Assembly (NCBI GenBank): GCA_048213135.1
Contig: PS015167.1
Span: 80,930 to 132,118 of the forward strand
Direction of reading: 5' to 3'
Source of the DNA: Reclinomonas americana ATCC 50394
Taxonomy: Eukaryota
Length of the DNA stretch: 51,189 nucleotides
Shown here: positions 324 through 51,189 of the stretch, piece by piece
Numbering within the stretch: the first letter of the stretch is position 1
Layout of the letters: each line of letters starts with the position of its first letter
Notes under the pieces: generated by a model
What the model saw: the letters and a program-made list of their open reading frames with translations, nothing else
The model's database searches: none
Told to the model about the DNA's origin: nothing
Made by a program: the position numbers and the translations under genes

Positions 324-2950
324 GTTGAGTGTGTGTGTGTGTTTTGTCGTCAAAGTGTCCGGTGTCCATCTCCCATGGCAAGGGGGGCGGAGCCATCTCT
401 TGCCTTGCCACGCGCTCTTTGTGTGTCTGTGTGTGTCTGTCTGTGTGTGTGTGCATGTGACTGAGAGAGAGTGTGTGTGTGGCACGCGCGTCGTTTGTGT
501 GGAGGCGGGCCCTGTATTGCGGTCTCATGTGTGTGTGTGCACGCGCGCGTGTGTGTGTTCTTTTGTTTGTGCGTGTGTGNNNNNNNNNNNNNNNNNNNNN
601 NNNNNNNNNNNNNNNNNNNNNNNNNNNNNNNNNNNNNNNNNNNNNNNNNNNNNNNNNNNNNNNNNNNNNNNNNNNNNNNNNNNNNNNNNNNNNNNNNNNN
701 NNNNNNNNNNNNNNNNNNNNNNNNNNNNNNNNNNNNNNNNNNNNNNNNNNNNNNNNNNNNNNNNNNNNNNNNNNNNNNNNNNNNNNNNNNNNNNNNNNNN
801 NNNNNNNNNNNNNNNNNNNNNNNNNNNNNNNNNNNNNNNNNNNNNNNNNNNNNNNNNNNNNNNNNNNNNNNNNNNNNNNNNNNNNNNNNNNNNNNNNNNN
901 NNNNNNNNNNNNNNNNNNNNNNNNNNNNNNNNNNNNNNNNNNNNNNNNNNNNNNNNNNNNNNNNNNNNNNNNNNNNNNNNNNNNNNNNNNNNNNNNNNNN
1001 NNNNNNNNNNNNNNNNNNNNNNNNNNNNNNNNNNNNNNNNNNNNNNNNNNNNNNNNNNNNNNNNNNNNNNNNNNNNNNNNNNNNNNNNNNNNNNNNNNNN
1101 NNNNNNNNNNNNNNNNNNNNNNNNNNNNNNNNNNNNNNNNNNNNNNNNNNNNNNNNNNNNNNNNNNNNNNNNNNNNNNNNNNNNNNNNNNNNNNNNNNNN
1201 NNNNNNNNNNNNNNNNNNNNNNNNNNNNNNNNNNNNNNNNNNNNNNNNNNNNNNNNNNNNNNNNNNNNNNNNNNNNNNNNNNNNNNNNNNNNNNNNNNNN
1301 NNNNNNNNNNNNNNNNNNNNNNNNNNNNNNNNNNNNNNNNNNNNNNNNNNNNNNNNNNNNNNNNNNNNNNNNNNNNNNNNNNNNNNNNNNNNNNNNNNNN
1401 NNNNNNNNNNNNNNNNNNNNNNNNNNNNNNNNNNNNNNNNNNNNNNNNNNNNNNNNNNNNNNNNNNNNNNNNNNNNNNNNNNNNNNNNNNNNNNNNNNNN
1501 NNNNNNNNNNNCCATATTTCTTTCTTGGAGCTGTGTGGCGAAGTGGGCAAGTCACTGATTCATACTGTTTGCATGATTATACGCGAGAAACTGAGGTATT
1601 CAAATTGCAAGAATTGAAGGAAGTCGAGTGTTGTTGCATTGCAAATCGAATTGCGGCAAACAATACCCACAAGCGAAGAGCCTTAGCGATCCACAGAGAT
1701 AGCAACATCGTGGCGTGAGAATCAACATCTTGTGCGAGAAACTGAGACACTGGAAATTACAGCATGCGCAATCGCAGAAAGTCGAATTCGAATTCTGGCT
1801 CGCGCAGCCACAGCAGCATCAACAACAGCACTGTATGCATTCACAGCGCAGCCGCCAAGTAGAGCCGGAAACAATGACATCTCAACTGCAGCGCGACCAG
1901 AAAGCCGATTTCGAAAGTTGGATTGCCAAAGTTGGAATTCGATTTTCATGCTTTGCGCGGAAGACATATCTCTCGGAGTGTCGCGACTTTGACACCTACG
2001 CATTCGAGCTAGAACAGCAACTCGCAAATTAATCTCACGAAATGTTGCAGGTTGTCTCGAGCTCACGTGGAGCTCGGGGCTTCGATTTCGAAAACAGGAC
2101 CCGCTGCGCAATTCCGAAATTGTAAAAGCTGCGATCCGCATAGCTACGGTGCATGAGACGATGGAGACTCACACGTACCGCAACCAGAAGAGCGAACGCC
2201 GCAGCGGGCCCAGATCGCTGCTGCTTCGGAAACCGAATTCGGTGACCAGATTTGCGAAGGCTGCAGCTTCGAATTCGCCCCTGCGATATCGAAGTCGAAG
2301 CGGATCGCGTCACTTCCAAGCTGTGCATGACTGCGGTGACTTGCCATAAGTCACCAAAATATGCAGCTCGGAAGTCCAAGTCTGCAAGTGTCGGGTGCAA
2401 GCGCCGAACGATTTGAATATCGATGCTCTCGGTTGCATGAAAGTGTCCGATCAATACCACGTCGCTGCAGACCTTTTCGCTTTGCTCCGGCTTCGTTCGA
2501 ATACTGCTCGGCCTCCTGCTTGCACTTGCATACGTTCGTTTCTTGGAAATCCGCCGGAATATCGAATTCGAAATCGAATCGAACAGAATAGCGCCATGCC
2601 CGACTTGTCCCGGTCGCATGCGACTGCATAGCAGTCACAGCTGGTGGTCCTCTGGACTCGGCACAGGGCGTCTCCTCTCGGCGCATGCACACAACTTCCA
2701 AATCGGACATGTCCGATATCAAGAAAAAGCGCCCTTTCCTCCCTTCGCAGCGACCCATCCACTCTCTCTCTCCCCATCACCATCATCTCTCACTCCTACA
2801 CCACCCTGTACAACTTCAGCACGGCCGGTGAGTCGCGCGAGCGAATGTCCGGAATTTGCCTCGCGGCTCCCACCTCAAATTTTTGCGCGCACAACGCACA
2901 ACGCGCCCCTCATCCCTCTCCGTGTGTGTGCGTGTCAGGTGATCAAGAGG

Positions 2951-5900
2951 ATGGCGAGCGACGACGTCACCACGCCCACACTCGATGGTCTGTCACCACC
3001 ACACCAAGAGACAAGAGAGAGAGTCCCTCTCATCACTCACTCTCTCTCTCTCTCACTCACACACACAGAGAGCTTCTACCTGCTCTTCACCTACTACTCC
3101 GGCCCCAAAGGCCACGGCAACGAACTGAGCTCCACCTCCACCACCACCTCCTCCTCCGCCTCCAAGAAACCCGCTCTGCCCAAGTCGCCTCCACCCCGCC
3201 TCCCGCCCAAGCTGAAACCGGGCGAGCAAGGTGGAGGCGTGCAGCGCGCCGCCGCCCGCGGTGTCCTGTGGCGCGGCGGCTGCTTTGCCCTGCGACGTGA
3301 CGAGCTGGCGATGCTGCGCCGCGGAGGACACGTGCCGAGCAGCAGTAAGAAGAAGCAGAAGAAGAAGAAGAAGCTGAAGAAGACGACACCGACAAAAGCG
3401 AAGCAGGGAAAGCAGGGTCAACGTCGGGATAACGCCGATGGTGAGGGAGGTGACGGTGTCGATGTCGACTCGGAGGGAGGTGATGACGACGACGACGATG
3501 ATCACGATGATGAGGAGGGTGAGAGTGACGCGGAAGATTTCGATGATGGTGACGACGATGGTGATGATGATGAGTGGGGCGAGGACGACATGCCGGCGGT
3601 GCACATGCTGGAGGCGGAGATGATTGATGTGCTGGAGTCGCAGCGTTTGTATTTTGGCGCGTTTCGGCAGCTGGTGCGCGACATGGGAGTGCAGCCGGAG
3701 CATTACTCGTCGTTGACGTTGCACAAGCTGTTTAGCACGTGCTCCGGAGTGGAAGATATGTGAGAGGGAGGGAGGGAAAAGGAGGGAGGGAGGGGGGGAG
3801 GGCGAGAGGGAGAGGAGAAGAGCTACTGATGTTTCGCCACGTTATGTTGATCCTCGCGCTCTTTCTCTGAGCGCAACACTCATGCCGCCACGTCTTCTAT
3901 TCGTGCCTCATGTGTCTTCCTCAGTCTGTGTACTGGTCGTCATCCCTTGTTCATCTCGCCCTTTCTCTCAGCGCAACAACTACGATCTTTATGTGCGCAC
4001 TGTCACTTATACGAATGCCGGCGACTTGACTTTGTCACGAGAGAATGGAAAATGTGCCTTGAACTTGGGGTCTTTCCTCAACTCTTTTTTCTTGTTATGT
4101 TGCAGCATTCCACGACTTCGTGCCTCGTGTATCCTCCTCACGCAGTTGACATCGATGTTCGGTCGTCCTTTGCTCTGCATCTTCTCGCACCCTTCGCCAT
4201 GCCGCTGTTGACGTCCTTGACAAAGATCTGTTCTCAACTGTATCACCCTCGCTCCAAGACTGTCTTTTCGTGCTCCTCGTCGTTTGGCACTCCGCGTACG
4301 ACTTTCTGCACTCTTCTTTCCATATGCAACCTGTGTCGCGCTTTGCTCTCTCCTCCCACATGCTGACTGTCGTGTTTCTTCCCTCTCCCTCGCACGTGGC
4401 TCGCCATTCATCACCTTTGAGGAGCTGTGCGTGGCCATTGAGCAAATTGTCGACGACTTCCTGCCGCACTTTGCGTCGCCAGCCACTCGCTGGCTCTTTG
4501 TGCACCGCGAAAAGGTGGTGCCGCTGCTCACACAACACAAGGTAACGCCAGCCTCACGTCCCTCTCCTCTCTCCACTTTGCACTCACTCTCTCGGCTGGT
4601 GTGCAGGGTGGCGAAGCGTACATTTACCAGCAGCCGAAACGACCAGACGAGTTGGACCAGCCGAATGTTCTCGGCGTCTTCAGCATGTACGAGCCGGCGC
4701 TGCTCAAGGTGCCTTTTGATTGTCTCTCATTGCCTTCAGCATTCACTTGCCTCCCCTCACACTCCTCGGCAGATGTTCCTGCACTTTGCATGCATGTTTG
4801 ACGAGGATCGCGGTCAAAATCCAGACGGCGACGAGCTGATGAACGAGGAAGAGTTTCTCGAGTCGCTCAGCGTCTTTGGCGTGGTACCAAAGGAGCTGAC
4901 AGCAAAGGATGCGCATCGAGTTGCGTCTTCTTCTTAGATTATGTCTCTCTCCGTTTCTCTCTCTTTCTCTTCATTGTCTCTCCGTCCCTCTGTCTCTCTC
5001 GCCCCTCTCCGCAGTCACGCACGCAATGTCTCGTTCACTGTCTCTCCCTCTCCGTTTCTGCCTCTCTCAGACTCTTTTCCTTTCTCTTTTCCTCTCTCTA
5101 TGCCTTTTTCTTCTCTCCCTCGTCCTCTTCCTCCTTTCTCCTTCTTCTCTCTGTCTCTCTCTCTCTCGTTCCATTTCCTCGCTCCATCTTTGCATTCTCA
5201 CTCTCGTTTCTTTGTTTCCCTGTCCCTCTGCCTCTCTCTGCCTCTCTCTCTCTCCCTCCCTACCTCCCTCTCTCTCTCCCTTCCTCCCTCTCTCCCCCTC
5301 TCCCTCCCTCCCTCCTCCCCCCCTCCCTCCCTCCTTCTCCTTCCCCTTCTCACCTCCCTTCCCTGTCTACAGGTGTTCGAGGCCGTCAATGTGGGCGAGG
5401 TGGCCGACGCCAACCTCAGCGACCTCGATTTCGGCGAGTTCCAAGAGTGCCTCGGTCGCATCGCACTCATTATCTTCTCGCGGCCCATGTACGCCGACTC
5501 GCACCGCACACCGATGGACAAGGTGTGCGCGCTGTTGGACCACATGGATACCGCGTACTTGCGTCTCTTCGACATTACCATGCAACAAGAGATTGCCCGT
5601 GCGAAGCGCCAGACCGTGGCCGTCGATCGCGAGATCGACGTGCGTGTGTCGCTGGCGGAGTACAGTTGCGGAGGGGGAGGCAGAAGGGAGGAGGGGGAAT
5701 GAGAAGAAGAGAGTGGGATAGCATGCTGTCACCAAGGCAGTCCTCGCATTTCCGCATGTGTTTTTACTCGATTTTGCTCTCGGTTGCTCGCTCTCTTCTT
5801 TCAATACCCCCTGCCGCATTTCTCTCCCTCCTGTTATTCTGCTCCCCTTCTCATTCGCCACGTACCATGCCCAACAGTGGCGGAGGGATTTGGTGAGCGA

Positions 5901-8900
5901 GGACAGCAGAGAGCAGGGAGAATGAGAAGTGACAACTTGCTCTGTCATGTGTGCTCCACTGTTATCGCTTCTCATACCTTCCGTTTCTCCCACCACTTCT
6001 TTGTCTCTCCTGTCTCCCCCTGCTTCTCCTCTTCCTCTCCCTTTCGCCACTTCTCATACCCTATAGTTGCGGGGTGGGTGGGCGAGTGATGACAGAAGTC
6101 AACAGAGAGAATAGAGAAGCGAAGACATGCTGTGTTCATGTATTTCGTGTTGTCGCTTTTTGTTCTCTCCTACATTGGCGAAGGGGTCGGCGAGTGGTGG
6201 CAGAAGTGAGCAGAGAGAAATGGAAGGAAAGAGAGTGAGGTGATGCCCCAGAAACACTTTCTCTCAGTCTCTCCTCCCACTCCCGCTATCTCCTTTCCCT
6301 CCTCCTCCTGCTCCATTCTCCCTTTCCCATGTGCTCACCATTCTCCCACCACGCACCACAGAGGACGACTTTGACATCAACCTCCGCTCGCAACTCGGTC
6401 GCGACAGATACAACAATGTGATGCGATCAGGTGAGTTCACCACCCAACCCACTCACCTCATTGTACTATCCCTTCTCCCTCACCTCCCCTTCTCCCCTTC
6501 TCTCCCCCAGTACCCATGCGAAAAGTGTTCCGCGAATTCACCTCGCACGAATTCGGCTACAACACGCGCTACCTCGGTCTGCGCGAGTTCCTCACATTGG
6601 TGCGCACCAGCAAGCTGCTGCCGTTGGACTTGTCGGCGGTGGACGAGCCGCAGGAGCCGACGTTTGTGTACGGCGTGCCGATTTCGTCGGCGCTGACCAC
6701 GATGCCGGCGAATGAGATGGACCCCAAGTTCCTCACGCACTGGGCCGAGTCGCGCTTCCACCAGTGCGCACTGGCCACATACGGTAAAAACTCCTCACTT
6801 TGTCTATTCGTCAGTGTCTCGCCCTTTGCTCAACTCACTGTGCTGGTGCAGAGGGCGAACCTCACATGGAATATCGACATTTCATCGCCGCCGTGCTGGC
6901 GATTGCCGAGTACCGTGTCAACTACGAAAAGACGTCGCGGTGGACGGTGGCCACGGCCGAGACGCGCCACTTGATGGGCCCTGAGGATCTGGCGCGCGCG
7001 TCTCAAATGTTTGTGCTGTTGTGGCAGTGATAATCATCCCTTGGCTATCGTTCACATGTTGCGTTGCGCAGGCGACGAGCTCGCAACGAGCGCATCACCG
7101 TGTTCGATCGCTACCAGCACCTGCGAAAGAGATTTGGGCCCTCTTCCACCTCGCCCACCGGCGACGAGGCCGCCGACGCCTCGTCACCACGCACGCAGTC
7201 GTCAGCGACCGAGTCGGAGGTTTGTCTCCAGCAGCAAGGAGAAGTGCGCCCTCCTCGCTCACCCCACCTCTGTCCTCAGATCTCCATCGACTCCTCCTCC
7301 GACGGCTTGACCATTCGCAAAATGCCACTGGTGGAGGTCTTTGATCATGTGATCACCGACGTGGTGGAGCGCTACAACAAGGGCAAGATCCGCCATTTGC
7401 CGCCGACCGCCACCGCCACCAATGCCAACGTACCGTGGTCGTCGGGCCCGTCGGGAGCCGTGACACCGCGCGCCGACAGTGCCTCCGAGCACAGCGGCAG
7501 CGAGACCACGACACGCACGTCGCCCAACGATGTGGACCGTCGGGCGCGCCCGGCATCGATTCTTGTGGAGGAGACATCGTCGCACTCAAGTGTTGCGCCG
7601 CCGTCACCCGCACTGACGCCATCGTGGCGCTTCCGTGCACCGGCTCCCGAGATCGATGCCAGCACCAAGCACTTGCCCACACCGTCGGTGGGCCGGCGGC
7701 AAGAGACGCGCGTGGTGGCTGTGCGTGGCGGACCGCACGACAAGTTTGCCCCACATTCGCTGCACCGACCGGCGTCACCGACTTCTATCGTGAATGACAA
7801 GGTGCGCGATCTAGTCGGCCGTCAGCGTTCGCGGAGAACGTCGGTCGTTTCGCAGGCCAACTCGACGTCGACGGGCTTCCTCACCTCGCGCAAACAATCC
7901 ATGATTTCACTGTCGTCGCTGGTGGCCGGTGCCGGAGGAAACACCGGCGGTGGTGCCAATGTGATTGTGCAAGCGCCCATGCGGGGTGAGCTGGCAGGGT
8001 CCATGAAAAAGTCGGCACTGGCTCGCGCTGCCGCGGGAAGTGGACTGCCGCCCGCACCAAGTGGACCGTCCTCCGTGGCGCCGACGCTGGATGCCGACAA
8101 GCATCGTTTCCAGTTTGCCCGTGTGTCGAAACTGTCGTTGGTGCGCAACCTGAGCTGTTCTTTGCTCTCTCTCTCTTTTCTTTCGCCCACTGAATTCGTT
8201 GCACGTGTGCAGATTTCCAAACGCGACCACCGTGAGCTGGTATTGCACAATGGTCCGGTGCGTGTGGCGGAGATTGCCGACCGCGCCGGTCACATTATCA
8301 CCACCAAGTCGCAGTCTCGCTTCCGATCCGAGGCACATCGGTGTGTGTATTTTGCGTGCCGTCACGTGTGTTTCTTGTCGTGCACTGACACTCTCTCTAT
8401 TCTTACGACCCACGTCAGTATGTTTGATGTGCAAATCTTTGACGCGTCGGTGGAAGACATTGTGCTGCAGCACGTGTTTGTGGCGAACTCGTTCCAGGAG
8501 CTGGTGGATCGACTGCGCATGCACGGCTTCGATTTCGCCGCGCCAGTGCAGGAGCGGACACGCTCCCTTCTCGCCTACACGCAACTTGGTCGCGCCTGGC
8601 GACTGCATCTCATCGAACCCGGTGAGGGGGAGATGACAGAGGAGGAGCAACTGCTCACCAATGATGCGCGCATCGAAAAGAGGTGACGTGTGTGCGCGAG
8701 CGAGGAAGCTGAGATTATAGTTGGTGTGCGACTCACGTGTTGTGTTGTGACGCGCAGAATCGGCTTCCTCATTGACAGTCCTGGGCACTTTTCGTTGCTC
8801 AAGTGGCAGCCCACGTACGACTGCGCGTTTTCCGACGAAGTTGCGTGTGATTGTGCAAGTGTGCATCGATCGCAGTGGCTCACCTCCTGGGTGTCACAGC

Positions 8901-9058
8901 ACTCGCTCACACTCTACGAGGAAGACGATCTGAGCGACATTTTCTTTGCGTGTTTCGAGGCGTACCAGGTCGCCACCTCCTGGGCCGACTTGAGGAAGCG
9001 TCTGCTGGACAACCACATCCGCCTGGAGCCACACATCTCCGGCGTGAAACGAACCTGA
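2951..9058 (+). CDS. Large multi-exon protein with several degenerate EF-hand-like helical modules, an acidic tract and a Ser/Pro-rich linker; function unknown (5' end uncertain)
   Basis: Exons join in frame across GT-AG introns, e.g. ...TLD|ESFYLLFTYYS..., ITFEELCVAIEQI, LMNEEEFLESLSVFGVVPKELTAKDAHR|VFEAVN..LDFGEFQECLGRIA, YLGLREFLTLVRTSKLL, MEYRHFIAAVLAIA. Stop TGA at 9056-9058. One acceptor (4396) is non-canonical. Confidence 0.7.
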
Positions 9059-9300
9059 ATGTGGTGTGTGTATTAAGTATGCTTCTTGTTTATCGCACTG
9101 TGATATAAATGTTACATGATGGTAGTCCTTCGAGAGAGAAGGGGGGAATGCCGAACTGTACATTTGTTTGCTCGCTCAACAGAGAGTATGACAATATTCA
9201 CACGCCAACGCGTGGTGGGGGGAAAAGGGGGCACAAGAAACCAGTAACATAGAAGCAAAAGGAGAATCAGATTGGAGGCTGTGTGGTGCGGCCTCTCATT

Positions 9301-12300
9301 TTAGTGCGTGGACTCGACTTTTCTCCGTGCCGTGCCTGCGACACATGCGCAAGAGAGCCTGGTAAGCATCAGATGCGCCTCACCACTTCCCATCACCTCC
9401 ACTCACCGATATCACACGAGTTGACCTTGGAGGCGAAGCGCAGTGAGTTGAGGCTCTCCTGCATGTGCACCTCGGTGGGCGAGATGTTGACAAACATCAG
9501 CGTCTTCGAGTTGCCACCCAGTGAGTTTTGCAGCAGGTGTGTCAGCTTCGAGTTCCGGTACGGAATGTGGGCGCTCTTGTTGGCCAGGGCGGCAATGACA
9601 TCGCCGAGGCACGACAGCGACTTGTTGATGTGCTGCGTCTCGATCTTGCGGTCGCCCGTGTGCTGCGTTTGCTTCAGGCGCTCCGAGCCGGCCAGGTCAA
9701 TGAGGTTGAGCAGACCGCGGCAGGCCTGCAAGAAGGAGAAGGGAAGCAAGAGTGAGACATATGTTGAGAACAGAAGAAAAAAATCATTGCCACAGTGCTC
9801 ACCTTGCCAGTGGTGGCATTCTCACCACGAATGCGCAGCTGGAACACAGAGTGCGAGCGTGACGAGTGTGCATTGCACTTGGTCTCGGCCCATGCGCGCT
9901 GCTTCGAGGCGCGCGTCAACAGAGCTGCCACCTGGGTCGGATGACGGACTTCCACTGCGTCATCAACAACAGCCATGTGAGTGACGCGCGAGGAAAGAAG
10001 CACGAGTGTCGCGCACAACGCACCAATCTCCAGATTGGTGACATAGATTAGACCCTCGCGGTCGGCCTTGATCTCGTACTTGTGATCAGTGCCGGGCTCC
10101 GCCAGCAGATCGTTGATGGTCTCGTTGTAGATCTCGAGGAACGAGGCCTCCAGCGTGTACTGCCAGCCGTGCTCACGCAGGCGCTGAGCCACGTCAAAGA
10201 TCTTGTTGACCTGATTGGGAGGCAAGAGCAACAAGTGAATAGTGCGCAAAGGGAGAGCATTTAAGACACAAGTTCACAAACAAGAACACAACACAAGAAC
10301 ACTGTAACACGCATTTGCTCACAAACTATACGACACGACACAAACAAGAAAACACAATAAACATCAGGGACCGCACTTCATGTACAGCAAAGATACACAA
10401 GTATACAACAAGAACGCCTAACCGAGTTCACGAACAAGAAACACAATGAAATAAGGGATAGAACGTTGACATATGATGACACGTACACAGAGACACACAC
10501 CGACATAGACACACAAGAATACGCATAATATGCAACGCAACAGTGCGCGGAATGACACCCATCATCGACGGGTCCGGCTGCACTGGCATCATCGACGAGC
10601 TGGCGCCACCCTCCTCAAAGACGGACGGACCCTCCATTGTGAAGGTCTTGCCGCTACCCGTCACGCCATAGCTGTGCACCATCACCACGTCAGCCAAAGA
10701 TCGGCAACAGTAGAAAGGGTGGCTATAGGCAATGTTCGACGCAACGCAAACACGCAGACATTGTAGCCGTCGAGCGCGCTCTGCACGAGTTGTGACACCT
10801 CAGTGAACACCTCCTCCTGGGTGGCGCGTGGACCAAACACATGGTCAAACTCGAAGCGCCACTTCTTGCCGTCGCGGTAGTCGCCGGCGGCCGAGGTTCC
10901 CTAAAGAAGGAAGAGCAGTGAGCTGCAATTGAGCATGCCATCAAAAGGTATTGGTGTGGATCCACGCACCGATGGGCCCGAAATCTCAATGGCGTTCTCG
11001 CAGTCCGTCGGCACGTCGATCGGTGCAACGCTCTCGGCCACCTCGTCGGCTGTGTTGAGAAGAGAGAATAGGAAATAGCCATGAGCAACAGAACAGTGAA
11101 TGAAGCCAACGCTATCTCACAACTGAGAATGACACCCAGAGCCCACTATGTCTCCACAGACTCCATCTCCTCTCCGACACTCACCAATGGTGGGCCGCAC
11201 ACGGCAGTACACACGAATGTTGCCCTTCAGCTCCTGAATGGTGTTGTGCAGCTCGCGGCGCACCATTTCATCCTCGCGACGACGCTGCTCCAGCTGCGCA
11301 ACCTCCTCCACACGAGCGGCCACGGCGGCCTCCAGGTTGGTGATTTGCTGTGCGCGACTGACACACAACTCCTCGGCCGCCTGCGCGATTGGCGTCGGTG
11401 TCAGCGCGCACCAACTCTGACATTGCACAACGAATGTAGCGACGCAACAGACAACGAGGCGCGAGTGGCCGCCAGCTGCTCCTGCAGCGACAGGCGCATC
11501 GACTGCATCTCCAGGCTCATGGTGTTGCGCACCGAGGCGATTTCGGCGTCGGCCGCATGACGCACACGAGTGGTCTCCTCGTGAGCGCGCGTGACATCAT
11601 CCTGTGCAGCTGACAAGCGGGCCTTGAGCGCGCTGTTCTCCTGCTCCAGGCGAGCCACCTCGCCCTGCGTCGTCATCAGTCGAGTGGAGAGACTGTCCTT
11701 CTCCACCACCTGCAGGTGCAGGCGGTGGCGCGTCTCGTGCAGCTCCTGCAGCATGCGTCCATTGTCTTCGCGCACCGTGTCGAGCTGAGCGGCTGCGCAC
11801 ACACGTGTGAGACGACGGTTGAGTGCTACAAATACAGTGCAGGAGGACGGACCCTTGGCGCCGCTCTCGACTAGGCGTTCCTGCAGGCTGGTCACCTGCT
11901 GGATTGTCGAGCGCATCTGCTCTTGCAGCTCCCTGTTCAATGTCTCCATGTCGGCGAGTCGGCCCTGTGAACAGCGAGGAGTGAGATACGCAAGGAGAAG
12001 ACAAGCACCGACGGATCTACCTTGACGTCCCACGCCTGGCGACTGCCACTGCTGCCAGAGGCGGCAGCCGTCGGAGCAGCAGCAGCAGCATTGCTGGCTG
12101 ACGCGCCCGACGACGCCGTGGGAGTGCGACGGCCACTGGCCGACGCTGGCTTGGTGGCGGCGACGGTGCGCGAGGCCGCGGTGGTGCGCCCGTTGAGAGC
12201 CGTGTTGGCTGCCGTCACAGAGTTCGAGCCGCTCGGAGTCGTGCGTCCACTGGTGCTTCGCTCGCGCGGTGTGAGTGATCCACCAATGCTTCGCGAGCTC

Positions 12301-34771: not shown

Positions 34772-36745
34772 ATGTCAACTCCACTCGGCACCTCGCGATT
34801 CCCCGGCTCTCCCAGCTCCGTTCGCGGTGGTCCGTCTTGCCTGTGTAACAACACACACACACAGGTCGCGCAACCCGTTGTCTCACATTACTCTCTCTGT
34901 GTGTGTGCAGGCTTGATGGGCTCTCCGAACGGCGCCGCCAGTGCCGCAGCAAAGGCGTCGCCGCGAACGATTCTTGAGCCACTTTGTTGCGTGTTTTACT
35001 CGTGTTTTTTCATGTGCATGTGAGGTGCATTTGTTTGTTGATTTTCCGTGTGTGTGCCTATGTGCAGCGGATATGCGTGGATCGCCAGCAAGTGGAGTGC
35101 GGTCGCCGACAGGACTGAGCCCGCGAGGTGAGAGGAGTGATATGAGAGAGAGAGAGTGAGTTTGAGAAACGTGCAAGTTTTGCAAGACAGGCAGCACTGA
35201 GAGCTTCCTGTGCGTTCTCTTTCGCGTGCATGTGTGTGTGTGTGTGTGCGTGTGTGTGTGTGCGTGTGTGCGTGCGTGCATGTGTTTCTTGCCTGCTGAC
35301 TGTGAACGGTTGGTTGTTTGTTTCTGTTGTTTGTGTGTAGGTGATGCCTTGTCACCTGCGCAGTCGAAGCTGGTGCGTGTGGCGGAACAGGTGGTGGGAA
35401 GCTCGTCGGCTGTCATTCAAGACACACGAGTTGCGTCTTGTGTTTGCAATGCGACGTGCATTGTCGGAATAATTTACTGATCGTGGTGGTGTGTGTAGGC
35501 GCGAAGGGAAGCGGAGGAGCGGCGTTATGCGGATTTGGAGGATATGGTGCGACAGGTGGCCAAGGATCTGCGTGCGGAGCAGGAGGTCCGCAAGGAGACG
35601 CAGGACAGCTTGGAAGTGGTGCGTGGCAGCAACGATGTCCTCTCTCTCCTCATCCCTCCCTCCCCTTGTCTCTCTTTCGATCACGTGTCCATGACTATGC
35701 AACTGCAAACTGAGAACGGTCGATTGTCGTTGGTGTGCGTGTGCGTGTGTGTGTGCGTGTGGTGGGCCATGTCGCAGAAATTCCTCGCCACGTTGACCGG
35801 CATCGAGCGCAAGGGCTCTGATCAGAACGTGTCGGTGCGTGACGCGTTGGAGACGCTGGTTGCACGCGTGTCGATGCTGGAGAAGGAGAAGCAGGACGAG
35901 AAGGTTGGTTGTTTTATATTGCTGTGTTCGGTATTGTTATTGGCCGGTTCTGATATCTTGCCCCCCCTCGACATGCACAGCAAAGTCGCGACTACTTTGA
36001 GCAGCAGATCCGCGATCAGTTCACCAAGATGTTGGAGACGCGCTCGGAGGCCGACGAGGTGTTCCGTCGTCGTCTGCAGGAGGAGAACGCGCAGATGCGC
36101 GAGACGCTGACGCGCGAGAACCAGGTACGCCCACCACATGTTTCTTCTCACCTCGTACTTCATCTCACTCACCGCATACTCTCATTCACAGAGGATTCTG
36201 TCGCAATTCGACCCCATTTTTGCCACCATGGAGGACGTGAAGCGGCAAATGGCGCAGGATCGCGAACGACAGGTGTTGCTGTCGGAGCAGATTGAGCGTC
36301 TGGCGGGACAGATCAAGGCGCTGCAGGCACAAATGCAGGACGAGAAGAACAGCCGACTGGAGCAGGAGGTGATGCTGGTGAAGAAGTCGGAGGAGGACAT
36401 GCGACGAACACGGGAAAAGTTCGACACGGAGAGCAAGGCGCGCGACATTTCGCTGCAGACCATTCAGCGGTCAGTGGAGTCGGCCATCACCAACGTCCGC
36501 GAGCGTCTCCAAGTGTCTATCGACCAGCTTGACGAGTTTGTCAAGAGCCGTGTCGCCAGCCTCGATTCGCGGCTGGAGGAGCAAATCAAGGTGTGCACTC
36601 TTGCCAACTTGTCTCCCATGTTTTTCTCTCTACTCGTTGCTCAACCACGCCGCAGATTCGTGAGGCCGCCGAGGAAGACATTGTCAACAGTCTCGGCAAC
36701 TCCATTCTCGCCATTCAGCAAACGCTGCAGGACATGGGCCGATGA
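34772..36745 (+). CDS. SF-assemblin/beta-giardin-like striated-fibre coiled-coil protein
   Basis: Ser-Pro-rich head, then SPAQSKLVRVAEQVVG, a long coiled coil, and C-terminal IREAAEEDIVNSL..IQQTL typical of SF-assemblins. Nine in-frame exons; stop TGA at 36743-36745. Confidence 0.72.
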
Positions 36746-37558: not shown

Positions 37559-37580
37559 NNNNNNNNNNNNNNNNNNNNTC

Positions 37581-38021: not shown

Positions 38022-38304
38022 NNNNNNNNNNNNNNNNNNNNTTGTTGATTGTGTGGAGTTGCGTGTCCCGCGTGATGTCCCGCTGCAGTCGTACGCTCGT
38101 ATCGAGCTCGAGTGAGCCCGAGCTCAGCGAACCGCTGCTGCCACTGTTTCGTCCATGCGAAGCTCGACGTTGACGATCTCGTGCATGTTCGTGGCAGATC
38201 CATCGCTGCTGTCCGTCCACTCTCGTTATAGTTGTCTGCAAGCGCTCTCCAGCACGTAACAGACAACAGCACAGCGAACCCGGCGAGCGCAGAGACAACA
38301 CTAC

Positions 38305-39736: not shown

Positions 39737-39777
<41 letters not shown>

Positions 39778-39943
39778 AATCGCTCGTTGCTGCTATTGTG
39801 TGCACACGCAAACACACACTCCCTCCCTGCTCCTCCACCGCCCTCTCTCTCTCTTCCTCTCTCACCACTGCGCGTGTGTTTCGCGTCTCACAATGCGTGT
39901 TGCATATCGCGCGCAGTGTGCACCACCACCAACAGGAGGCAAC

Positions 39944-40630
39944 ATGAGTGCCTCCACCAACTCCAAATTCGGCGCTCTGGCCACTCTCGTGGTGGCCTGT
40001 GTGCTGTTGCTGACGCTGCTCGCGACGCAAGCAGATGGAGGTGAGTAGTCATTCTTCTATCGTGGGTCGTGCGTGCGAGTGAGTGTGAGTGCATGTGTGT
40101 GTGTGTAACAGAGAGAGAGAGAGAGAGAGAGAGACGCACACACACACACACACAGAGTGAGAGGGAGAGTGAGCTGTCTGTGCGTTGTGGACGTGTCGTC
40201 GTTCTTCAAAAGAGGTTCAGTTCTGCGTGAGGCAGCTTGATTACCCACTCTCATTGTCTGAGAAAATGGCGCGAATCGTGGAACCAATAGTACTCTTTGC
40301 TGTGTCGCAGCGCTGGACGCGCAAGTCGTGCTTCTGGCTCCGTCGGACTGTGTTGCATTCACCACCGGTGGCAAGCTGCAAGTCGTCGATCTCACTGGCA
40401 CCGGCCTGGACACCATCTACAACTTTGGAAGCACATTCTCGGTGTAAGTCTTGCGAACATACTGATCGCAGCGTGGTCAATATTCGTGTATGTCTCCTCC
40501 ATCGTTTCCCGCACCTTTTTTCTCGGCCTGTCAGTCACGCATGCGTGCACTGGTCTGTGAGCGGATGTCCCACAGCAGCGAATTCCTTTTCACTGGACGC
40601 GCTTCCTTGTTTTGTTGTCATCATTCTCTT

Positions 40631-40662
<32 letters not shown>

Positions 40663-43600
40663 GCATCCCGTTCTCTTGGTTTCTGATGCGCGCGCTCTCT
40701 CTCTCTCTCATACTCACCCCCCTCTCTCTCATTCTCTGTCTCGTTCTCCCCCCGCGAGTGTGTATGCGACACCATCTGCCTGTCGTAGTCGCAGCGCGCA
40801 CTTCACTCTTGTCATCGCCCTTTTACTCTCTTCTCTTGTTCTCATTCCCCTTTCCCTCACATTGTGATCTCCCTCCGCCCACGCAGCAACGACGCCGGCG
40901 GCAACTTTGCATTCGGTTCCAACCTCTTCGACCTGCAGGCGACGACACTGCGACTGCAGTTCGACTCTGCTCCCTCTGCTGTCTTTGATCTGCACTTCTT
41001 CCTGTTCGCGGATGGCGTGAACACCGGTATTGATGTGTGGATCGGAGCAACATGCATCGACACGCCACTGATCAAGGTCACGCGCGGCGGCTGCTTTGAG
41101 GACTTGCAGATCGTCCCTGTGATTGGCAGTACTTTCGTTGACTTCCCCGGTGCGTTGTCGTGCTCAGTGTGTTTGACCTTGTTTGCAAGGAGACAGACCC
41201 TCACGCTGACTACAAACTCCCACGCAGTCCGACAGTACGCACTGTTTACCGACAACAGCGGCGCTCCCTTCGTGATCTGCAACCCGAGCAACATCAATCT
41301 CCAAGTGACGGTTCTGCTCGATAGCGTGACTGACTTGGGAAACGAAAAGCTGTCCTTCCAGACCACTGTGCAGCGATTCAGCAGCAGCACACCGTACTAC
41401 CTGTGCATGCGTCGCAGTAACACCAGCAACTGGGCCTATGTCGGTGCGTGCACTTGCGTGTGTGTGTGAAGAGGAAGGAGGGCCTCGATTCACATGTTTG
41501 TTTTTGTTCTCTCTGCAGGTCCGGCGGTCTATGTTGGCGGCGTGTGTACCAACACAATCGCACGTATCCAGCTCCCTGACCCAACTGGTTCGGTTGCGTG
41601 CACTGCCCCACGCGATGTCATTGTCTCTGGTTTCGGCATTGAGAACGGCAACACCGCGGTGAGTCGTCGACCGTGACAATCACCAGCTGGCAATTCAGAC
41701 GTCTCACGTATCCACCCTCCCTCCCTTCACTTCCCTTCTCTCCCTCTCTCCCCACAGTACCAAGTCGCCACCGACCGGACGTGTGTCACCCCTACCGCAG
41801 TGGCCACCGTTAGCAACCCGGTGTACAACGGTTCAACATTGGCGCTGACCTTCCAGGTGGCCAGCTCTTCTTCGGCGACCTTCTACCTGTGCAGCACAGA
41901 TACAACGACCGACGGTGGCCAGTAGTTTCGTCGAGTTGCTGAGTCTTGTTTCACCTTCCATACGCTCTCACGCTGCCTCCGCTGGTTGTGCAGCACTTGG
42001 ACTGGCTCCGTTGTCCGTGTGGATGGGCCATGCATCGCAGCCGGCGTGTTTTCGAACGCATTCCCACTCGCGCTGACGCCTGGCACGTGCTACTCGGACA
42101 CCCAAGCCATCTCTGTCAAGGGAAGCAGCTTCCTGGATCCCACGCTGCCGGCAAATGTCGCCAAGCGCTATGCCATCTTTGACGAAGACACATGCACGAC
42201 GCCGCGATCCGGCTACATGGTTGTGGCTTCGTTGCGTTCATGGCTGCATTCGCTCGGTAGAAGTGCATTTTGCCGTGTCTCACCGTCTCTCTTTGTATCA
42301 GTGCCTCTGGTGCAGTGTGGAGTGCCACAAATCAGCGGCTGTTGATCACACTTACGTCGGCTGTGAGCACCAATACTGCTCTCGGCTACGTGGTACGTAT
42401 GGGTGTCAAGCGCCCAGCCATTGTGTGACGTGCTGTTCGGTTGACCGTTTGTGCCACGCTGCAGTGCTTCAAGAGTGCTGATAGCGGTACGAACTGGATG
42501 TTCACTGGCGCGTCGATTGTGGTGGACGGAGCGTGTGTCAATCGACCCAAATCGATCTTGCTGACGGATCCTGCGTGTCCGGCGGCCACATTGACTCGCA
42601 CGTTCACTCTTGTTGGTGCTGATTTGTCGACATCTAGCACAGTTGCGGTGGATGACGTGTGAGATGGGTTGCGTCGATGGTGTGCCTGACACGATCTCTT
42701 TGTGTGTGTGTCCCATGCGCAGTACCGTGTGTTCACGGATGTGGCGTGCTCGTCCACTGCCAGTGCGCCGGTCACGACGGCATCGCCCACGTCTGTCACT
42801 GGCACAACCAGCATGTCGCTTGTATTGGCATCGGCCACGCTGGTTGCCGACGCCGATCTGTATTTGTGCTCGTCGACTGCAGCTGCGAATGGCAGCTATT
42901 CTTGGTCTGGTGCGGTCATCCGCAATGATGGATCGTGCATCTTGAATACGACGTTCTCCGGCAACCCGAAGATCCTGCTCACGTCTGGTGCTTGTTTTGT
43001 CCGACAGTTGCGTTCCGCTTGTCCATTCATTCATTCATTCATTCGCTCTGTGTCTCACACCGACGCATGGCACTCACGCCATCGTTCTCTGTATCGCAGA
43101 CGCACGGTGGCAGTCGTGGGTCAGACACTTCCGGATCCGGCCATCCTGTCGGTGGCTGTTTTCGGCTCGAGCTTCAAGACTGTGGCAGCGTATCCGAACC
43201 AGGTGTACGCGCTGTCGCCGTCGGCCACGTGCGACACACTGGACACGTCAATCTCTGTGTCGCGACTGTCTGTCGACAGTGCGATGATGGAGACGCTCAG
43301 CTTCAACACTGTCAGTCGCTTGACATCGTCGGCCACTGCGCTGTACTTGTGCGTTCGCAACCTGACGACGCAGAGCAACTATGTCAGCACGGTGAGTGAG
43401 AAGGATGAGGAGGGCAAGCATTGTATACTTCGGAGGTGTGCTCACTGCGTGTGTGAATAGGGCNNNNNNNNNNNNNNNNNNNNNNNNNNNNNNNNNNNNN
43501 NNNNNNNNNNNNNNNNNNNNNNNNNNNNNNNNNNNNNNNNNNNNNNNNNNNNNNNNNNNNNNNNNNNNNNNNNNNNNNNNNNNNNNNNNNNNNNNNNNNN

Positions 43601-46600: not shown

Positions 46601-48132
46601 TGCGGCACCGATGGTACATGCACGTCGTTTGGAGCCGAGGCCACGTTTGCAAGCAGCGGTGCCTATCAGATCTGCTATCTGAAATCCGACGGCACCACGT
46701 GGGCGTCTGTGCCTGGTGGTGTGATTGCAGTGGGCACTCGTTGCGTGTGCATTGCATTTGGTGGTGATTGTGGTTCACAGCTCTGCCGTTTCCACTAACA
46801 CGCTCGGTTCTTGTGTTGTGCAGATATTGTCGCGTCGTCGGTTGCTGCCGATCCGATGTTCCCCGACTGGGTGAATTCGAGCTTTGACGGCGGCACTGGA
46901 AGTCGCACGTTTGAGACGCAGATTGAGTGGGATCCGACGAACCACTCGCGGTTTGGTTTGTAATCGTTTGCTTCGTTGTTGTTCAGAGGAATGGGTTTCT
47001 TACTCGGGTGTGTTCACCCAACAGCTGGCGTTCCGGATGTCCTTGTGGGCATCTCTGCGTTTGCTGTGGCAGCGCTATCGGACTCTCACGTGTATTGCTC
47101 GACGTCGGTGTGCATTTCGTTGATTCTCAGCGAGCCTGTGTGGACTCTGATGTGTTATTCACGATTGTGGTGCAGCGTGTCGATCGACACTTCATGACAC
47201 TGCGCTGCCTGGCATACGCGAGCGACAGCATCTCGAATCTGCAAGTGAATGTGCTGGCGCATTATACGCCGCGCAATCTGGGTGCCAGTGCGCAGGGCGT
47301 TGTCAACTACTCGTCACAGACGCGCTCCGATTGGTTCTTGCTACCGCCCTCAAGTTTGCAGTTGAAGAATCCCGGTCGCGATCAAGCCATCAGTCTGTCT
47401 CTCCCTGGCTTCAACTCGCCGCCCACCGTTGTGGCAGCGCTGCGTCACTTGCATCTTGACGGTCGTCGCCCGGCACACTTTTCTGGCACTGTCGAGGGTG
47501 TGAATGCCCAGTCGTTTATTCATCGGTATGTAAGGTTGCGAGCGTCTGTCGTCGTGTGCCATTTTGTCTCACCAGCGTGTTTGTGTTTGCACGCGTGCAG
47601 CGGGTGGGCGTATGCCGACGCTCGTGTGTCGCGACTGGCGTACTCGTGGATCGCCATGCAACCAACAGGCAATGCCAGTGGGTTTGGTCTCCAGGGTGGC
47701 GAGGTTTGTGTGAAGCGGACTGTTGACGTGTTACACGAGGCACTGATTGCGTCTCTATCTCTCTCTCTCTCTCTCTNNNNNNNNNNNNNNNNNNNNNNNN
47801 NNNNNNNNNNNNNNNNNNNNNNNNNNNNNNNNNNNNNNNNNNNNNNNNNNNNNNNNNNNNNNNNNNNNNNNNNNNNNNNNNNNNNNNNNNNNNNNNNNNN
47901 NNNNNNNNNNNNNNNNNNNNNNNNNNNNNNNNNNNNNNNNNNNNNNNNNNNNNNNNNNNNNNNNNNNNNNNNNNNNNNNNNNNNNNNNNNNNNNNNNNNN
48001 NNNNNNNNNNNNNNNNNNNNNNNNNNNNNNNNNNNNNNNNNNNNNNNNNNNNNNNNNCATGAATGGATGTTGGCAGTGCCTGGACCCACGGCACCGGCCG
48101 TTGACTACTCTTGGGCTGCGCTGGGCCAGTAA
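39944..48132 (+). CDS. Large secreted Thr/Ser/Cys-rich repeat protein with tandem beta-sandwich-like modules and C-terminal H-type-lectin-like domains (paralog A; three internal gaps)
   Basis: Signal peptide MSASTNSKFGALATLVVACVLLLTLLATQADG. Recurring modules with Y/F.VF.D..C and Y.LC.ST.GG..Y/W. C-terminal FNSPPTVVAALRHLHLD..VEGVNAQSF..WAYADARVSRLAYSWIA and VPDVLVGISAF. Ends DYSWAALGQ* with no transmembrane segment. Confidence 0.75.
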
Positions 48133-48853
48133 GATGGATTACGCAGCTACTTGTATGCATCTCTCTCAACTCTGGACTGCTGCTCTCTGTGCTTCGTCGT
48201 CCCATCTCTATCCCATTCGCCAAGTTCATGATCAGCACAGTATGATAAAAATGGTTCTTCTGCGTATTCTGATTTTTAATCTGGACACAAGGAGTAGTTG
48301 CCTGGCCAGGTCGTCGGAAGCGAGGGTGAACACAGTGGGGAACACGGACCAAGCCAAGATCATTGCTCTGAAATTGCAACCTGACCGTTACGGCGATTTC
48401 GCGCGCGCGCGAAACTTGCTCCATCTTGAATGCAGCAGACTCTTCGTTTCAATAAACTGGGGAAGTTCTTTAGTTTCTGAGCTTGTTCCCCATGAGGCCC
48501 GCGTCGCAAACCCACTTATCCACTTGAACTCGAACACGTCTTCGTATCCTATCAAGAAGTTTCCATCCATCCGTTTGACCTCACCCTGTTTCCACGCACG
48601 GCGACGAGGCGGGGAGGCAGAGGCTGCGTACAGTACACACCATCGAATGCCTGCACACTCTACTTTGTGCACACACACGCCGTTGTTGCCCGCTCTGTGT
48701 TCATATGCGCTCCTCACTGGCGCACATTCTTGATCACTCACGCACTCGCTTTCTTCTGCTTCTCTTCTTCGTGGGGTGCACTGCGTATGCGCAGCTTGTC
48801 TCACACTGCGCCTCGCCACTCCACAGGAGCAACAACCAGTCAAGAAGAAAAAA

Positions 48854-51189
48854 ATGAGTGCCTCCAACAACAAAATGGTCGCACTCATCACCCTCGTGAT
48901 CACCATCCTGATGGTGCTGACGATGCACGCAACACACGCTGATGGAGGTGAGTGGTAGTGCAGGTGCTGGCATGCATGCCACTGCGCAGCAACTTCATAT
49001 TTGTGGGGCCCTATTTGTGTTGCTCGTTGTGTGCACTTTCTTCTTTCTTCGCCTTGATGCAATGTTGCGCTCTGGCTGTGTGCGCGTGGCGGCACCTCGC
49101 TGCGTTGCGGTGATTGTGGTGTTGCGTCAAAAAGTCGATGGGCACAAACTAATGTGCATGTTGTTGTCTTTGCTGTGTCGCAGCGCTGGACGCGCAAGTC
49201 GTGTTTTTGGCTCCGTCGGACTGTGTTGCATTCACCGGCCCCGGTGGCAAGCTGCAAGTCGTCGATCTCACTGGCACAAGCCTGACCACCATCTACATGG
49301 GCACCACCTTTTCCGTGTACGTCTCCTTCCCTTCGCAAGCTTACTGGAGTTGGTGTTTCTCTTTCTCGCTTCTCTCTCTCTCTCTNNNNNNNNNNNNNNN
49401 NNNNNCCTTCTCTCCCTCCCATCCGCCTTCCCTCCCTTCCCGTCTCTCTCCATCCATTGCCACTTTCTTACCCTCCCTTCCCTCCCTTCCCTTCCCTTCC
49501 CTTTCCTATTCCCTTCACTCCCATCCGCCTTCCCCTCGCTTCCCTGTCCTCCCGTCCCTCCCATCCGCCTTCCCCTCGCTTCCCTGTCCTCCCGTCCCTC
49601 ATTCCTCCGGTCCCTCTTTCCCAACAGTACCAAGTCTCCGCCGACCGGACGTGTGTCACCCCTACCGCTGTGGTCACTGTCAGCAACCCGGTGTACAACG
49701 GCTCAGCATTGGCGTTGACCTTCCAGGTGGCCAGCTCTTCTTCGGCGACCTTCTACCTGTGCAGCACCGATACAACGACCGACGGTGGCCAGTAGTTTCG
49801 TCGAGTTGCTGAGTCTTGTTTCACCTTCCATACGCTCTCACGCTGTCTTCGTTGGTTGTGCAGCTCGTGGACTGGCTCCGTTATTCTTGTGGATGGGCCG
49901 TGCATCGCAGCCGGCGTGCTGTCCAACAGATTCCCGCTCGCGCTGACGCCTGGCACGTGCTACTCGGACACCCAAGCCATCTCTGTCAAAGGAAGCGGTT
50001 TCCCGGATCCCTCACTTCCGGCAAACATCGCCAAGCGCTATGCCATCTTTGACGAAGACACGTGCACGACACAGCGATCCGGCTACACGGTTGCGGCTTC
50101 GTTGCGTCCACGGCCTCTTGCGAACGAGAAGTGCATTGCCGTGTCTCACCGTCTCTCTTTGTATCAGTGCCTCTGGTGCAGTGTGGAGTGCCACAAATCA
50201 GCGGCTGTTGATCACACTTACGTCGGCAGTGAGCACCAATACTGCTCTCGGCTACGTGGTACGTATGGGTGTCAAGCGCCCAGCCATCGTGTGTGACGTT
50301 CTGTTCGGTTGACCATGTGTGGCTGTGTGCAGTGCTTCAAGAGTGCTGACAACGGTACGAACTGGATGTTCACTGGCGCGTCGATTGTGGTGGACGGAGC
50401 GTGTGTCAATCGACCCAAATCGATCTTGCTGACGGATCCTGCGTGTCCGGCGGCCACATTGACTCGCACGTTCACTCTTGTTGGTGCTGATTTGTCGACA
50501 TCTAGCACAGTTGCGGCAAATGACGTGTGAGATGGGTTGCGTCGACGCTATGCCTGGCACGGACTCACTGCCTATGTCACATGTGCAGTACCGTGTGTTC
50601 ACGGATTTGGCCTGCTCGTCCGCTGCCAGTGCGCCGGTCACGACGGCATCGCCCACGTCGGTCACTGGCACAACTAGCATGTCACTTGTATTGGCATCAG
50701 CTACGCTGGTTGCCGACGCCGATCTGTATTTGTGCTCGTCGACTGCAACGGACAACGGCAGCTACGCTTGGTCTGGTGCGGTCATCCGCAATGACGGATC
50801 GTGCATCTTGAAAACGACGTTCTCCAACAACCCGAAGATCCTGCTCACGTCTGGTGCTTGTTTTGTCCGACAGTTGCGTACCGCTTGTCCATTCATTCAT
50901 TCGCTCTGTGTCTCGCACCGGCGCATGGCACTCACGCCATCGTTCTCTGTATCGCAGACGCACGGTGGCAGTCGTGGGTCAGACACTTCCGGATCCGGCC
51001 ATCCTGTCGGTGGCTGTTGTCGGCTCGAGTTTCAAGACTGTGGCAGCGTATCCGAACCAGGTGTACGCGCTGTCGCCGTCGGCCACGTGCGACACACTGG
51101 ACACGTCGATCTCCGTGTCGCGACTGTCTGTCGGCAGCGCGCTGATGGAGACGCTCAGCTTCAACACTGTCAGTCGCCTGACATCGTCA
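48854..51189 (+). CDS. Tandem paralog B of the secreted repeat protein (runs off the window end)
   Basis: Signal peptide MSASNNKMVALITLVITILMVLTMHATHADG; 49628-51189 is near-identical, exon by exon, to 41758-43330. Confidence 0.8.

Follow-up and report, generated by a model that had tools for sequence, protein, structure and literature searches.

A predicted second class of 5′ splice sites, GTTGCG(T), in Reclinomonas americana, probably read one base out of register by a U1-type RNA

Introduction

Can one genome use two 5′ splice-site codes side by side in the same genes? This question is raised by a 51,189-base stretch of a eukaryotic scaffold from Reclinomonas americana ATCC 50394 (contig PS015167.1, forward strand, positions 80,930 to 132,118), which was analysed over its full length and is called the window here; all positions below are counted from its first base. 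The genes of the window are intron-rich, and a first-pass annotation of the sequence had listed, besides ordinary donors such as GTGCGT and GTGAGT, 20 donors that begin with GTTGCG or GTTGAG. It had proposed that the lineage may use a bulged register of U1 routinely, or may possess variant U1 or U6 or an altered U1C, Luc7 or Prp8.

In mammals, departures from the canonical U1 register are rare exceptions, and shifted as well as one-base-bulged registers are established in human cells (PMC4856993). A lineage whose commonest single donor heptamer was a shifted one would show that register shifting can become routine within a splice code. Such a class would also be a natural system in which to ask how U1, U6 and Prp8 set the point of cleavage after an out-of-register first pairing, and it would enlarge the small number of examples in which U1 and donor sites have changed together.

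Results and discussion

GTTGCGT is enriched and lies at homology-pinned junctions

All 20 listed motifs are present at their positions and on their strands, 18 of them as GTTGCG and two as GTTGAG; as heptamers they read GTTGCGT (16), GTTGAGT (two), GTTGCGG (one) and GTTGCGC (one). GTTGCG was observed 66 times versus 42.6 +/- 6.5 times in dinucleotide shuffles, none of which (0 of 100) reached 66. The heptamer GTTGCGT occurs 29 times on the two strands, with 11.2 occurrences expected from a third-order Markov model, and 16 of the 29 are claimed donors. It is the most enriched GT-heptamer outside microsatellites, the top ranks of GTAGGTA, GTGTGTG and GTGAGTG being due to the microsatellites of the window. 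Only one part of the class as first drawn is enriched, however, since GTTGAG was observed 30 times versus 37.1 expected. When all 96 GTTG[CA]G sites were ordered by a context score blind to the donor sequence, claimed sites filled the first six places.

Donor status was assessed with profile hidden Markov models (HMMs) built from 45 kinesin-14 homologues and, for gcvT, from 19 and later 112 homologues. At each junction, all in-frame, stop-free GT-AG and GC-AG alternatives within +/-45 nucleotides (nt) were scored, 112 in the kinesin motor region and 115 in gcvT. The model with GTTGCGT donors ranked best at 12 of 13 junctions, the one exception being the junction of an ordinary donor within a variable loop, where it trailed by 1.2 bits. 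The GTTGCGT donor was top-scoring at all five testable sites (10745, 10541, 16018, 17917 and 18247), with margins of 4.5-7.2 bits. GTTGCG stands at 5 of the 13 homology-pinned junctions versus 4 of 720 GT sites in predicted intron bodies (binomial test, 2e-8); the excess therefore does not come from the TG/CG-rich intron background, and the claimed surplus of GTTGCG at donors holds when put to this test.

We further delimited introns with a Viterbi gene model that combines codon usage, the GT...AG rule, an intron penalty and gaps. This model is crude and its counts are rough: it misses in-frame introns, merges or splits genes and, when it has no donor model, slides donors by 3-24 nt. In a first pass without any donor information, GTTGCG made up 2 of 31 donors. 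With learned intron composition and an acceptor model, still without donor information, it made up 4 of 44 and was the joint first hexamer, and with a donor hexamer table learned unsupervised from the model's own output it was clearly first, at 9 of 47. A class-aware model gave 10 of 64, and five GTTGCG donors were still kept when the motif was penalised like any non-consensus site. The share of a fifth to a quarter of introns that had been estimated by hand is plausible; the pinned junctions and these crude models together only bracket it, at roughly 10-40% of delimited introns. A gene finder trained on a single donor matrix will annotate many exons of this genome wrongly, and donor-blind models misplaced several boundaries here. 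Two introns are skipped by gene finders because they are in frame and stop-free, one at 9955-10023 (minus strand), recognised from the spacing of kinesin homologues, and one at about 35618-35777 (plus strand), recognised from its TG-repeat content in an SF-assemblin gene.

Not all of the 20 donors stand equally firm. Five are HMM-pinned, one is placed by EF-hand spacing, and 12 are based on reading-frame continuity, gene-model runs or paralogue indels. The introns at 324 and 14733 run into runs of N, and the donor calls there stay putative. Two pairs of sites, 42231/50101 and 43007/50873, are copies of one recent duplication, so that 18 of the 20 sites are independent; an extra pair beyond the list, 42642/50510, brings the independent sites to 19. 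GT stands at the intron start of all 20 sites, and an in-frame YAG acceptor was found for the 16 variant introns that could be delimited. Variant and ordinary donors occur together in the same genes. Taken together, these results support the earlier claim of a distinct and frequent second donor class that shares its genes with ordinary donors and ends in normal YAG acceptors, and we conclude that the GTTGCGT sites are a real and, within the window, statistically strong second class of predicted exon-intron boundaries.

The class differs from ordinary donors on both sides of the cut

G is found at -1 of none of the 19 independent variant sites and of all eight HMM-pinned ordinary donors (Fisher test, 4.5e-7). 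Compared with the ordinary G/GTGCGT, in which the slash marks the exon-intron boundary, the variant /GTTGCGT differs by one base (GGTGCGT to GTTGCGT) and is cut one base further 5′. The heptamer is also rigid: at the 19 sites T+3, G+4 and G+6 are invariant, C+5 is present in 17 and T+7 in 15, whereas ordinary donors vary from +3 to +6 (GTGAGT, GTGCGT, GTACGC, GTATGT, GTGTGT, GTCCGT, GTCCTT and others). Only T is enriched at +3, as the other variants are at or below expectation (GTAGCGT, 0 versus 2.6; GTCGCGT, 8 versus 14.5; GTGGCGT, 10 versus 18.4). The ratio of GCG to GAG is 17:2 in the variant class versus about 10:11 in ordinary GTGCG/GTGAG donors (Fisher test, 0.007; ordinary counts tallied by hand from model lists).

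Ordinary donors carry a near-constant G at -1 across the window, for example at 8141, 16836, 22601, 36125 and 36591. The ordinary GTGCGT donor at 20085 (minus strand; AFKKAD/TDGSGQLEKEE), which is pinned by EF-hand spacing only, has T at this position, which makes G at -1 a strong but not an absolute rule for ordinary donors. Ordinary donors also favour C at +4 (11 of 27 in a hand tally) and often have C at +6 (GTGCGC, GTACGC, GTGAGC, GTGTGC), a preference that resembles the donors of Mastigamoeba, Thecamonas and Mamiellales (10.1101/2022.06.08.495308).

The absence of G at -1 also bears on the possibility that the boundaries are off. The exon could end in the G with an intron of the form TT...AGN, the intron could be a GC-AG intron that starts at GTT/GCGT, or the motifs could be compositional and no donors at all. 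Judged from the sequences, a slide by one base would leave the protein unchanged at four of the five pinned sites and the messenger RNA unchanged at two, and it would restore the -1 G rule; furthermore, two of the 20 sites are unverifiable and several have weak codon scores. The slide would, however, need two unprecedented rules, TT-start introns and cleavage after AGN, while GT...YAG is exact at every site, and the base after AG is equally G-rich in the two classes (6 of 13 variant and 12 of 26 ordinary introns). At four of the five pinned GTTGCGT junctions the runner-up is the GC start three bases downstream, and it loses 5.0-7.2 bits. At 18247 the runner-up is another GT or GC site; the GC start is not among the listed alternatives there, and the best alternative loses 4.5-5.3 bits. 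A compositional origin could not yield 5 of 13 from a background of 4 of 720. We regard misplaced boundaries as very unlikely.

A further explanation would be that the class consists of copies of a mobile introner that carries GTTGCGT at its terminus by coincidence. Several protists and algae possess introner families with conserved ends, and the heptamer is unusually invariant. For recognisable copies this candidate was largely rejected: when 11 variant introns were aligned, conservation was confined to the first 6-7 columns and column identity averaged 40%, and intron lengths and 3′ ends differ among variant introns. An introner origin is thus highly improbable.

The two classes of introns are otherwise alike in their main signals. 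In the 3′ ends of 13 introns of each class, inspected by eye and with no statistical model, the CTRAY-like branch motifs CTGAC, CTCAC, CTGAT and CTAAC lie 17-33 nt before YAG in both, and the median lengths are similar (77 nt for variant and 69 nt for ordinary introns). These features suggest that the variant introns are predicted GT-AG introns of the major (U2-type) spliceosome. The intron bodies differ in composition, G being 0.26 in variant versus 0.18 in ordinary introns and C being 0.23 versus 0.33 (p 0.009 and 0.006; 13 versus 26 introns); we treat this difference as a lead only, as 13 of the 26 ordinary introns were model-selected and the introns are clustered by gene. Several variant introns, in a small and partly model-selected set, end in GGTGGTG-like runs and not in a pyrimidine-rich stretch.

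U12-type introns have the 5′ motif RTATCCTT and a branch motif TCCTTAAC close to the 3′ end, and the usual share of minor introns is far below the share of the class described here. The variant introns are like them in having a rigid, long 5′ motif from +1 and no exon consensus and in lying in the same genes as ordinary introns. A U12-type identity was nevertheless rejected, because the donor is GTTGCGT and not RTATCCTT and because CTGAC, CTCAC, CTGAT or CTAAC stands at the usual distance, as in ordinary introns.

A shifted register on a non-standard U1 as the proposed mode of reading

Donors from -3 to +9 (16 variant and 14 ordinary) were paired with candidate U1 5′ ends by RNAduplex, with pseudouridines and proteins ignored. 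With the standard U1 end AUACUUACCUG (as in PMC4856993), ordinary donors paired at a mean of -6.3 kcal/mol, all in the canonical register, whereas variant donors had a mean of -1.2 kcal/mol and no consistent register; the +1 register was seen in 8 of the 16 variant sites, with energies near zero. A U1 with G at position 5 (ACGUAC; AUACGUACCUG, flanks assumed) gave -5.1 kcal/mol for variant donors, 15 of 16 in the +1-shifted register and none bulged, and -8.2 kcal/mol for ordinary donors, 14 of 14 canonical. A hypothetical U1 with ACGCAC gave means of -7.1 and -8.6 kcal/mol for variant and ordinary donors, and the hypothetical full complement ACGCAAC gave -11.3 and -4.5 kcal/mol, the latter in mixed registers. 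No bulged duplex was predicted by RNAduplex for the variant sites with any of the four U1 ends.

These results bear directly on the first of the two earlier proposals, that ordinary U1 (ACUUAC) reads the class with a bulged U at +2/+3, as in the human class, and that the lineage does so often. The motif does read as GT+T+GCGT, and a U beside a U can bulge at either position. Experiments in human cells have, moreover, validated the +2/+3 bulge, and 68 human 5′ splice sites were assigned to it by prediction among the 10,248 first predicted for any bulge or loop register (PMC4856993). A bulge would, however, keep the pair between the -1 G and C9 of U1, and G is absent from -1 at all 19 sites (P about 5e-14 if its frequency were 0.8). 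With standard U1 none of the 16 sites was bulged, their mean pairing energy being the near-nil value given above, and A at +5 would pair better than C with standard U1, yet C is preferred 17:2. Together with the enrichment of T alone at +3, these observations disfavour a bulged register on ordinary U1, which we consider unlikely.

Three features therefore indicate that the register is shifted and not bulged and that the pairing partner has G opposite +5: G is lacking at -1, T is needed at +3 and C is preferred at +5. The second earlier proposal, an altered U1, gains weight, since a rigid heptamer with a strong C at +5 requires a partner that carries G at the facing position. First recognition would thus occur by U1 pairing in a register shifted by one, in which the intron's own +1 G would take the place of the exon -1 G of ordinary donors. 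G+1 would pair with C9 of U1, U+2 would stay unpaired, U+3 would pair with A7, and GCGU would pair with U1 positions 6-3. Such pairing would require a U1 5′ end with G (and perhaps C) opposite CG, reading ACG(U/C)AC in place of ACUUAC. As with ordinary introns, U6, U5 and Prp8 would afterwards fix the GU at which the intron truly begins. We infer both the pairing register and the non-standard U1 sequence from this analysis, and the U1 itself is a prediction. The RNA that reads the class is probably of the U1 type but not textbook U1, with its pairing displaced by one base. The fuller interpretation, that H/GTTGCG(T) forms a second rigid class of major-spliceosome introns read in a shifted register by a non-standard U1, is one that we hold with about as much belief as doubt.

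Several points weigh against this interpretation. GTTACGT should pair at least as well as GTTGCGT with an ACGUAC U1, yet it occurs once in the window (1.2 expected) and at none of the delimited donors; the invariance of G+4 therefore stays unexplained unless U1 position 6 is C. If the register were simply moved by one, the variant bases at -1/-2 might be expected to follow the ordinary ones at -2/-3, and they do not copy them (A at -2 in 0 of 13 variant introns versus A at -3 in 12 of 26 ordinary introns). Thecamonas and Mamiellales have +4C donors with a standard U1 (10.1101/2022.06.08.495308), and a +4C preference alone is therefore no proof of an altered U1. Finally, a dedicated RNA with full complementarity would account somewhat better for the invariance of G+4 and the lack of an exon signal.

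Such a dedicated RNA would be a second small nuclear RNA (snRNA), a U1 paralogue or another small RNA, with a 5′ end ACGCAAC fully complementary to GUUGCGU, while ordinary U1 would serve the ordinary donors. The far greater rigidity of the class (T+3, G+4 and G+6 invariant in 19) and its lack of an exon consensus are as expected of reading by perfect complementarity. ACGCAAC has the strongest pairing on variant donors and weak, mixed-register pairing on ordinary ones, which is the reverse of standard U1, and the higher G and lower C of variant introns would also set the two classes apart. A precedent may be Physarum, for which standard and modified U1 candidates are described (10.1101/2022.06.08.495308). 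On the other side, an RNA of the ACGCAAC type is not among the snRNA matches within the window, where Rfam gave no snRNA gene at the gathering score and, at E <= 1, 10 sub-threshold matches of which none was a spliceosomal snRNA. The branch-site type and the acceptor are common to both classes, the composition difference is subject to the limits of its intron set noted above, and one altered U1 with two registers would be the simpler arrangement. On grounds of economy, and of the branch and acceptor signals that both classes have, a single U1 is a better fit than a second RNA. We therefore judge a dedicated second snRNA to be possible, with the chances distinctly against it. In that case two donor codes would exist side by side, the second class being read by its own U1 paralogue, a split resembling that of major and minor introns but newly arisen within the major spliceosome; we offer this idea only tentatively. 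Pairing of the donor with ACGCAA-like words in the 3′ part of the same intron was looked for by eye, and ACGC was found there at about chance frequency.

Comparison with known systems

In mammalian shifted-register sites, which start with GU, U1 pairs are displaced by one and the +1 G replaces the -1 G (ref. 10 in PMC4856993); the sites of the window also start with GU and, in the reading proposed here, would pair in the same way. The mammalian sites need no exon G, and their cleavage is fixed later, independently of the U1 register; the window class likewise shows no need for G at -1 (0 of 19). In other respects the two differ. The mammalian shifted register concerns a few sites, which read AAGU(AU) once shifted and are served by standard U1, whereas the window class has a rigid GCGU, amounts to roughly 10-40% of delimited introns and does not pair with standard U1. 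Since the human sites have AAGU after the extra U and those of the window have GCGU, a human-style bulge or shift on standard U1 is not transferable to them. As in the human bulge +2/+3 (ref. 16 in PMC4856993), an extra U stands right after GU and is followed by a consensus-like donor. Unlike in that class, in which the exon-side pairing is kept, the -1 G is absent from the window sites (0 of 19) and no bulged duplex is predicted.

Altered U1 5′ ends have been described elsewhere. In Entamoeba the U1 5′ end is AACAAAC, matching an atypical donor (Roy and Bowser, 10.1101/2022.06.08.495308), and Mastigamoeba balamuthi has a U1 candidate with ACGUAC, the altered end used in the pairing above, together with GUGCGC donors (10.1101/2022.06.08.495308). 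These Archamoebae have one donor consensus and one register, and the accessible portion of that preprint describes no second, shifted class in them. The Mastigamoeba genome has 60.7% GC and 3.4 introns per gene and lacks the minor spliceosome; donor classes are unmentioned in the accessible portion of its report. A full-text literature search, covering articles without their supplements, found no description of a GTTGCGT or GUUGCG donor class among the matches listed, those for GUUGCG being judged by title or abstract.

Individual sites

The kinesin-14 gene on the minus strand provides two of the HMM-pinned sites, both in the motor region and both also placed by the donor-blind model. The intron at 10672..10745 (74 nt, phase 2) has the donor GC/GTTGCGTC and a CAG acceptor and leads its HMM alternatives by 7.2 bits. 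The intron at 10211..10541 (331 nt, phase 0, IPRT/VNKIF) has the donor ACT/GTTGCGTT and CAG and leads by 5.6 bits. A coiled-coil intron at 11381..11448 (68 nt; donor TCT/GTTGCGTC) has a CTGAC branch motif 20 nt before CAG; its placement comes from frame continuity and from the best context score of all 96 GTTG[CA]G sites, and later models chose a 38-nt alternative. Towards the N terminus, a putative intron at 12887..13625 (739 nt; donor ATC/GTTGCGCA, without T at +7) was found by class-aware models only and is weak, with no homology. The putative donor at 14727..14733 (minus) would follow a five-codon first exon, ATG GAC GTC GAT CAC/GTTGCGTA, and its intron would span a run of N.

The other three HMM-pinned sites are in gcvT. 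The donor of intron 1 at 16012..16018 (minus strand; AC/GTTGCGTT) lies on a contig that seems to be inverted, with a CAG acceptor ending at 16677 on the plus strand, and its margin was 5.5 bits with the 19-sequence HMM and 5.0 bits with the 112-sequence HMM. On the plus strand, the introns at 17917..17993 (77 nt, phase 0; donor GCT/GTTGCGTA) and 18247..18311 (65 nt, phase 1; donor GTC/GTTGCGTG) were top-scoring by 6.6 and 5.3 bits with the smaller HMM and by 7.1 and 4.5 bits with the larger one. The first conserved gcvT exon (Pfam GCV_T positions 1-52) is on the minus strand at 16010-16475, between runs of N at 15462-16009 and 16476-16537, and the remainder of the gene is on the plus strand at 16678-18526. 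The small contig 16010-16475 looks like an assembly artefact, inverted within the scaffold.

Two further sites are on the minus strand. In the EF-hand gene, the intron at 19746..19815 (70 nt; donor CTT/GTTGCGTG) interrupts AFVSL/DADGSGALNEEEF; it was placed by eye from helix-loop spacing, and its codon-usage score is weak. The EF-hand gene begins with MGAA..., a possible N-myristoylation signal. The intron at 33230..33295 (66 nt, phase 1; donor TTC/GTTGAGTA) has no homology; without splicing, a TGA within the motif would end the frame, and use of the CAG at 33230 as acceptor joins the downstream open frame.

The remaining sites are on the plus strand. The claimed donor at 324..330 (CAT/GTTGAGTG) has no usable acceptor before the run of N at 580. 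The intron at 4920..5372 (453 nt; donor CGA/GTTGCGTC) was chosen by donor-blind, trained and class-aware models, the first runs having used a donor at 4884 with the same acceptor. The donor of the intron at 5665..6361 (ACA/GTTGCGGA) was picked in every model run, including donor-blind ones, and its acceptor is uncertain, at 6361 or 6510. In the SF-assemblin gene, a head-domain intron at 34986..35067 (82 nt, phase 1; donor TTT/GTTGCGTG) was called by the class-aware model with a weak coding score. A second intron at 35430..35498 (69 nt, phase 0; donor CGA/GTTGCGTC, TAG acceptor) was placed by eye from frame continuity, and its context score is above 95% of random GT sites, but with a different acceptor. 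Splicing at both sites gives an unbroken frame from the ATG through the SP-rich head of the SF-assemblin gene. The intron at 46740..46823 (84 nt; donor CTC/GTTGCGTG, CTAAC branch motif) is backed by the trained model and frame continuity; the class-aware model instead chose a G/GT donor 33 nt downstream.

A surface-protein-like gene present in two copies accounts for the rest. The copy A intron at 42231..42301 (71 nt; donor TTC/GTTGCGTT) contains two 2-nt indels relative to copy B, which start right after the heptamer, and its counterpart at 50101..50167, found by paralogue alignment, is not independent. The extra donor beyond the 20 belongs to an intron at 42642..42722 (81 nt; ACA/GTTGCGGT) with a copy at 50510-50588, and in this pair paralogue substitutions and a 2-nt indel begin directly 3′ of GTTGCGG. 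The copy A intron at 43007..43099 (93 nt; donor ACA/GTTGCGTT) contains an 8-nt indel relative to copy B and was called by trained and class-aware models; its counterpart at 50873..50957, from paralogue alignment and the class-aware model, is again not independent. Other GTTGCGT heptamers with a non-G base at -1 lie outside the gene models at 8840, 28949 (minus), 48933 (minus) and 49121. Small exons that escaped recognition, or untranslated regions, could use them as donors; their context scores are low.

Gene content and sequence setting of the window

The window contains 17 runs of N totalling 4,650 N and has a GC content of 45-60% per 5 kb. A Pfam scan was made of the 150 longest of 168 open pieces with high third-position GC (the 18 shortest were dropped), which came from 754 pieces of at least 40 amino acids. 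It matched a kinesin motor, both gcvT domains, ankyrin repeats, CAP-Gly, SF-assemblin and two dual-specificity phosphatases. The closest match of the kinesin has 79% identity; homology searches gave no close named relative for the gcvT exon and no match for the SF-assemblin exon. A search for RNA sequencing runs that contain positions 4093-14092 listed none.

The two-copy gene, which is cysteine- and threonine-rich and has no Pfam match, lies in a tandem duplication at 41757-43460 and 49627-51189. The aligned columns of the copies are mostly identical, also in the introns, and the tandem copies are therefore recent. Copy A has further exons up to about 46960. Long microsatellites of the types (CT)n, (CACT)n, (CTAC)n, (GAGT)n and (TG)n are present within introns and between genes, for example at 13880-14460, 15180-15460 and 17270-17640.

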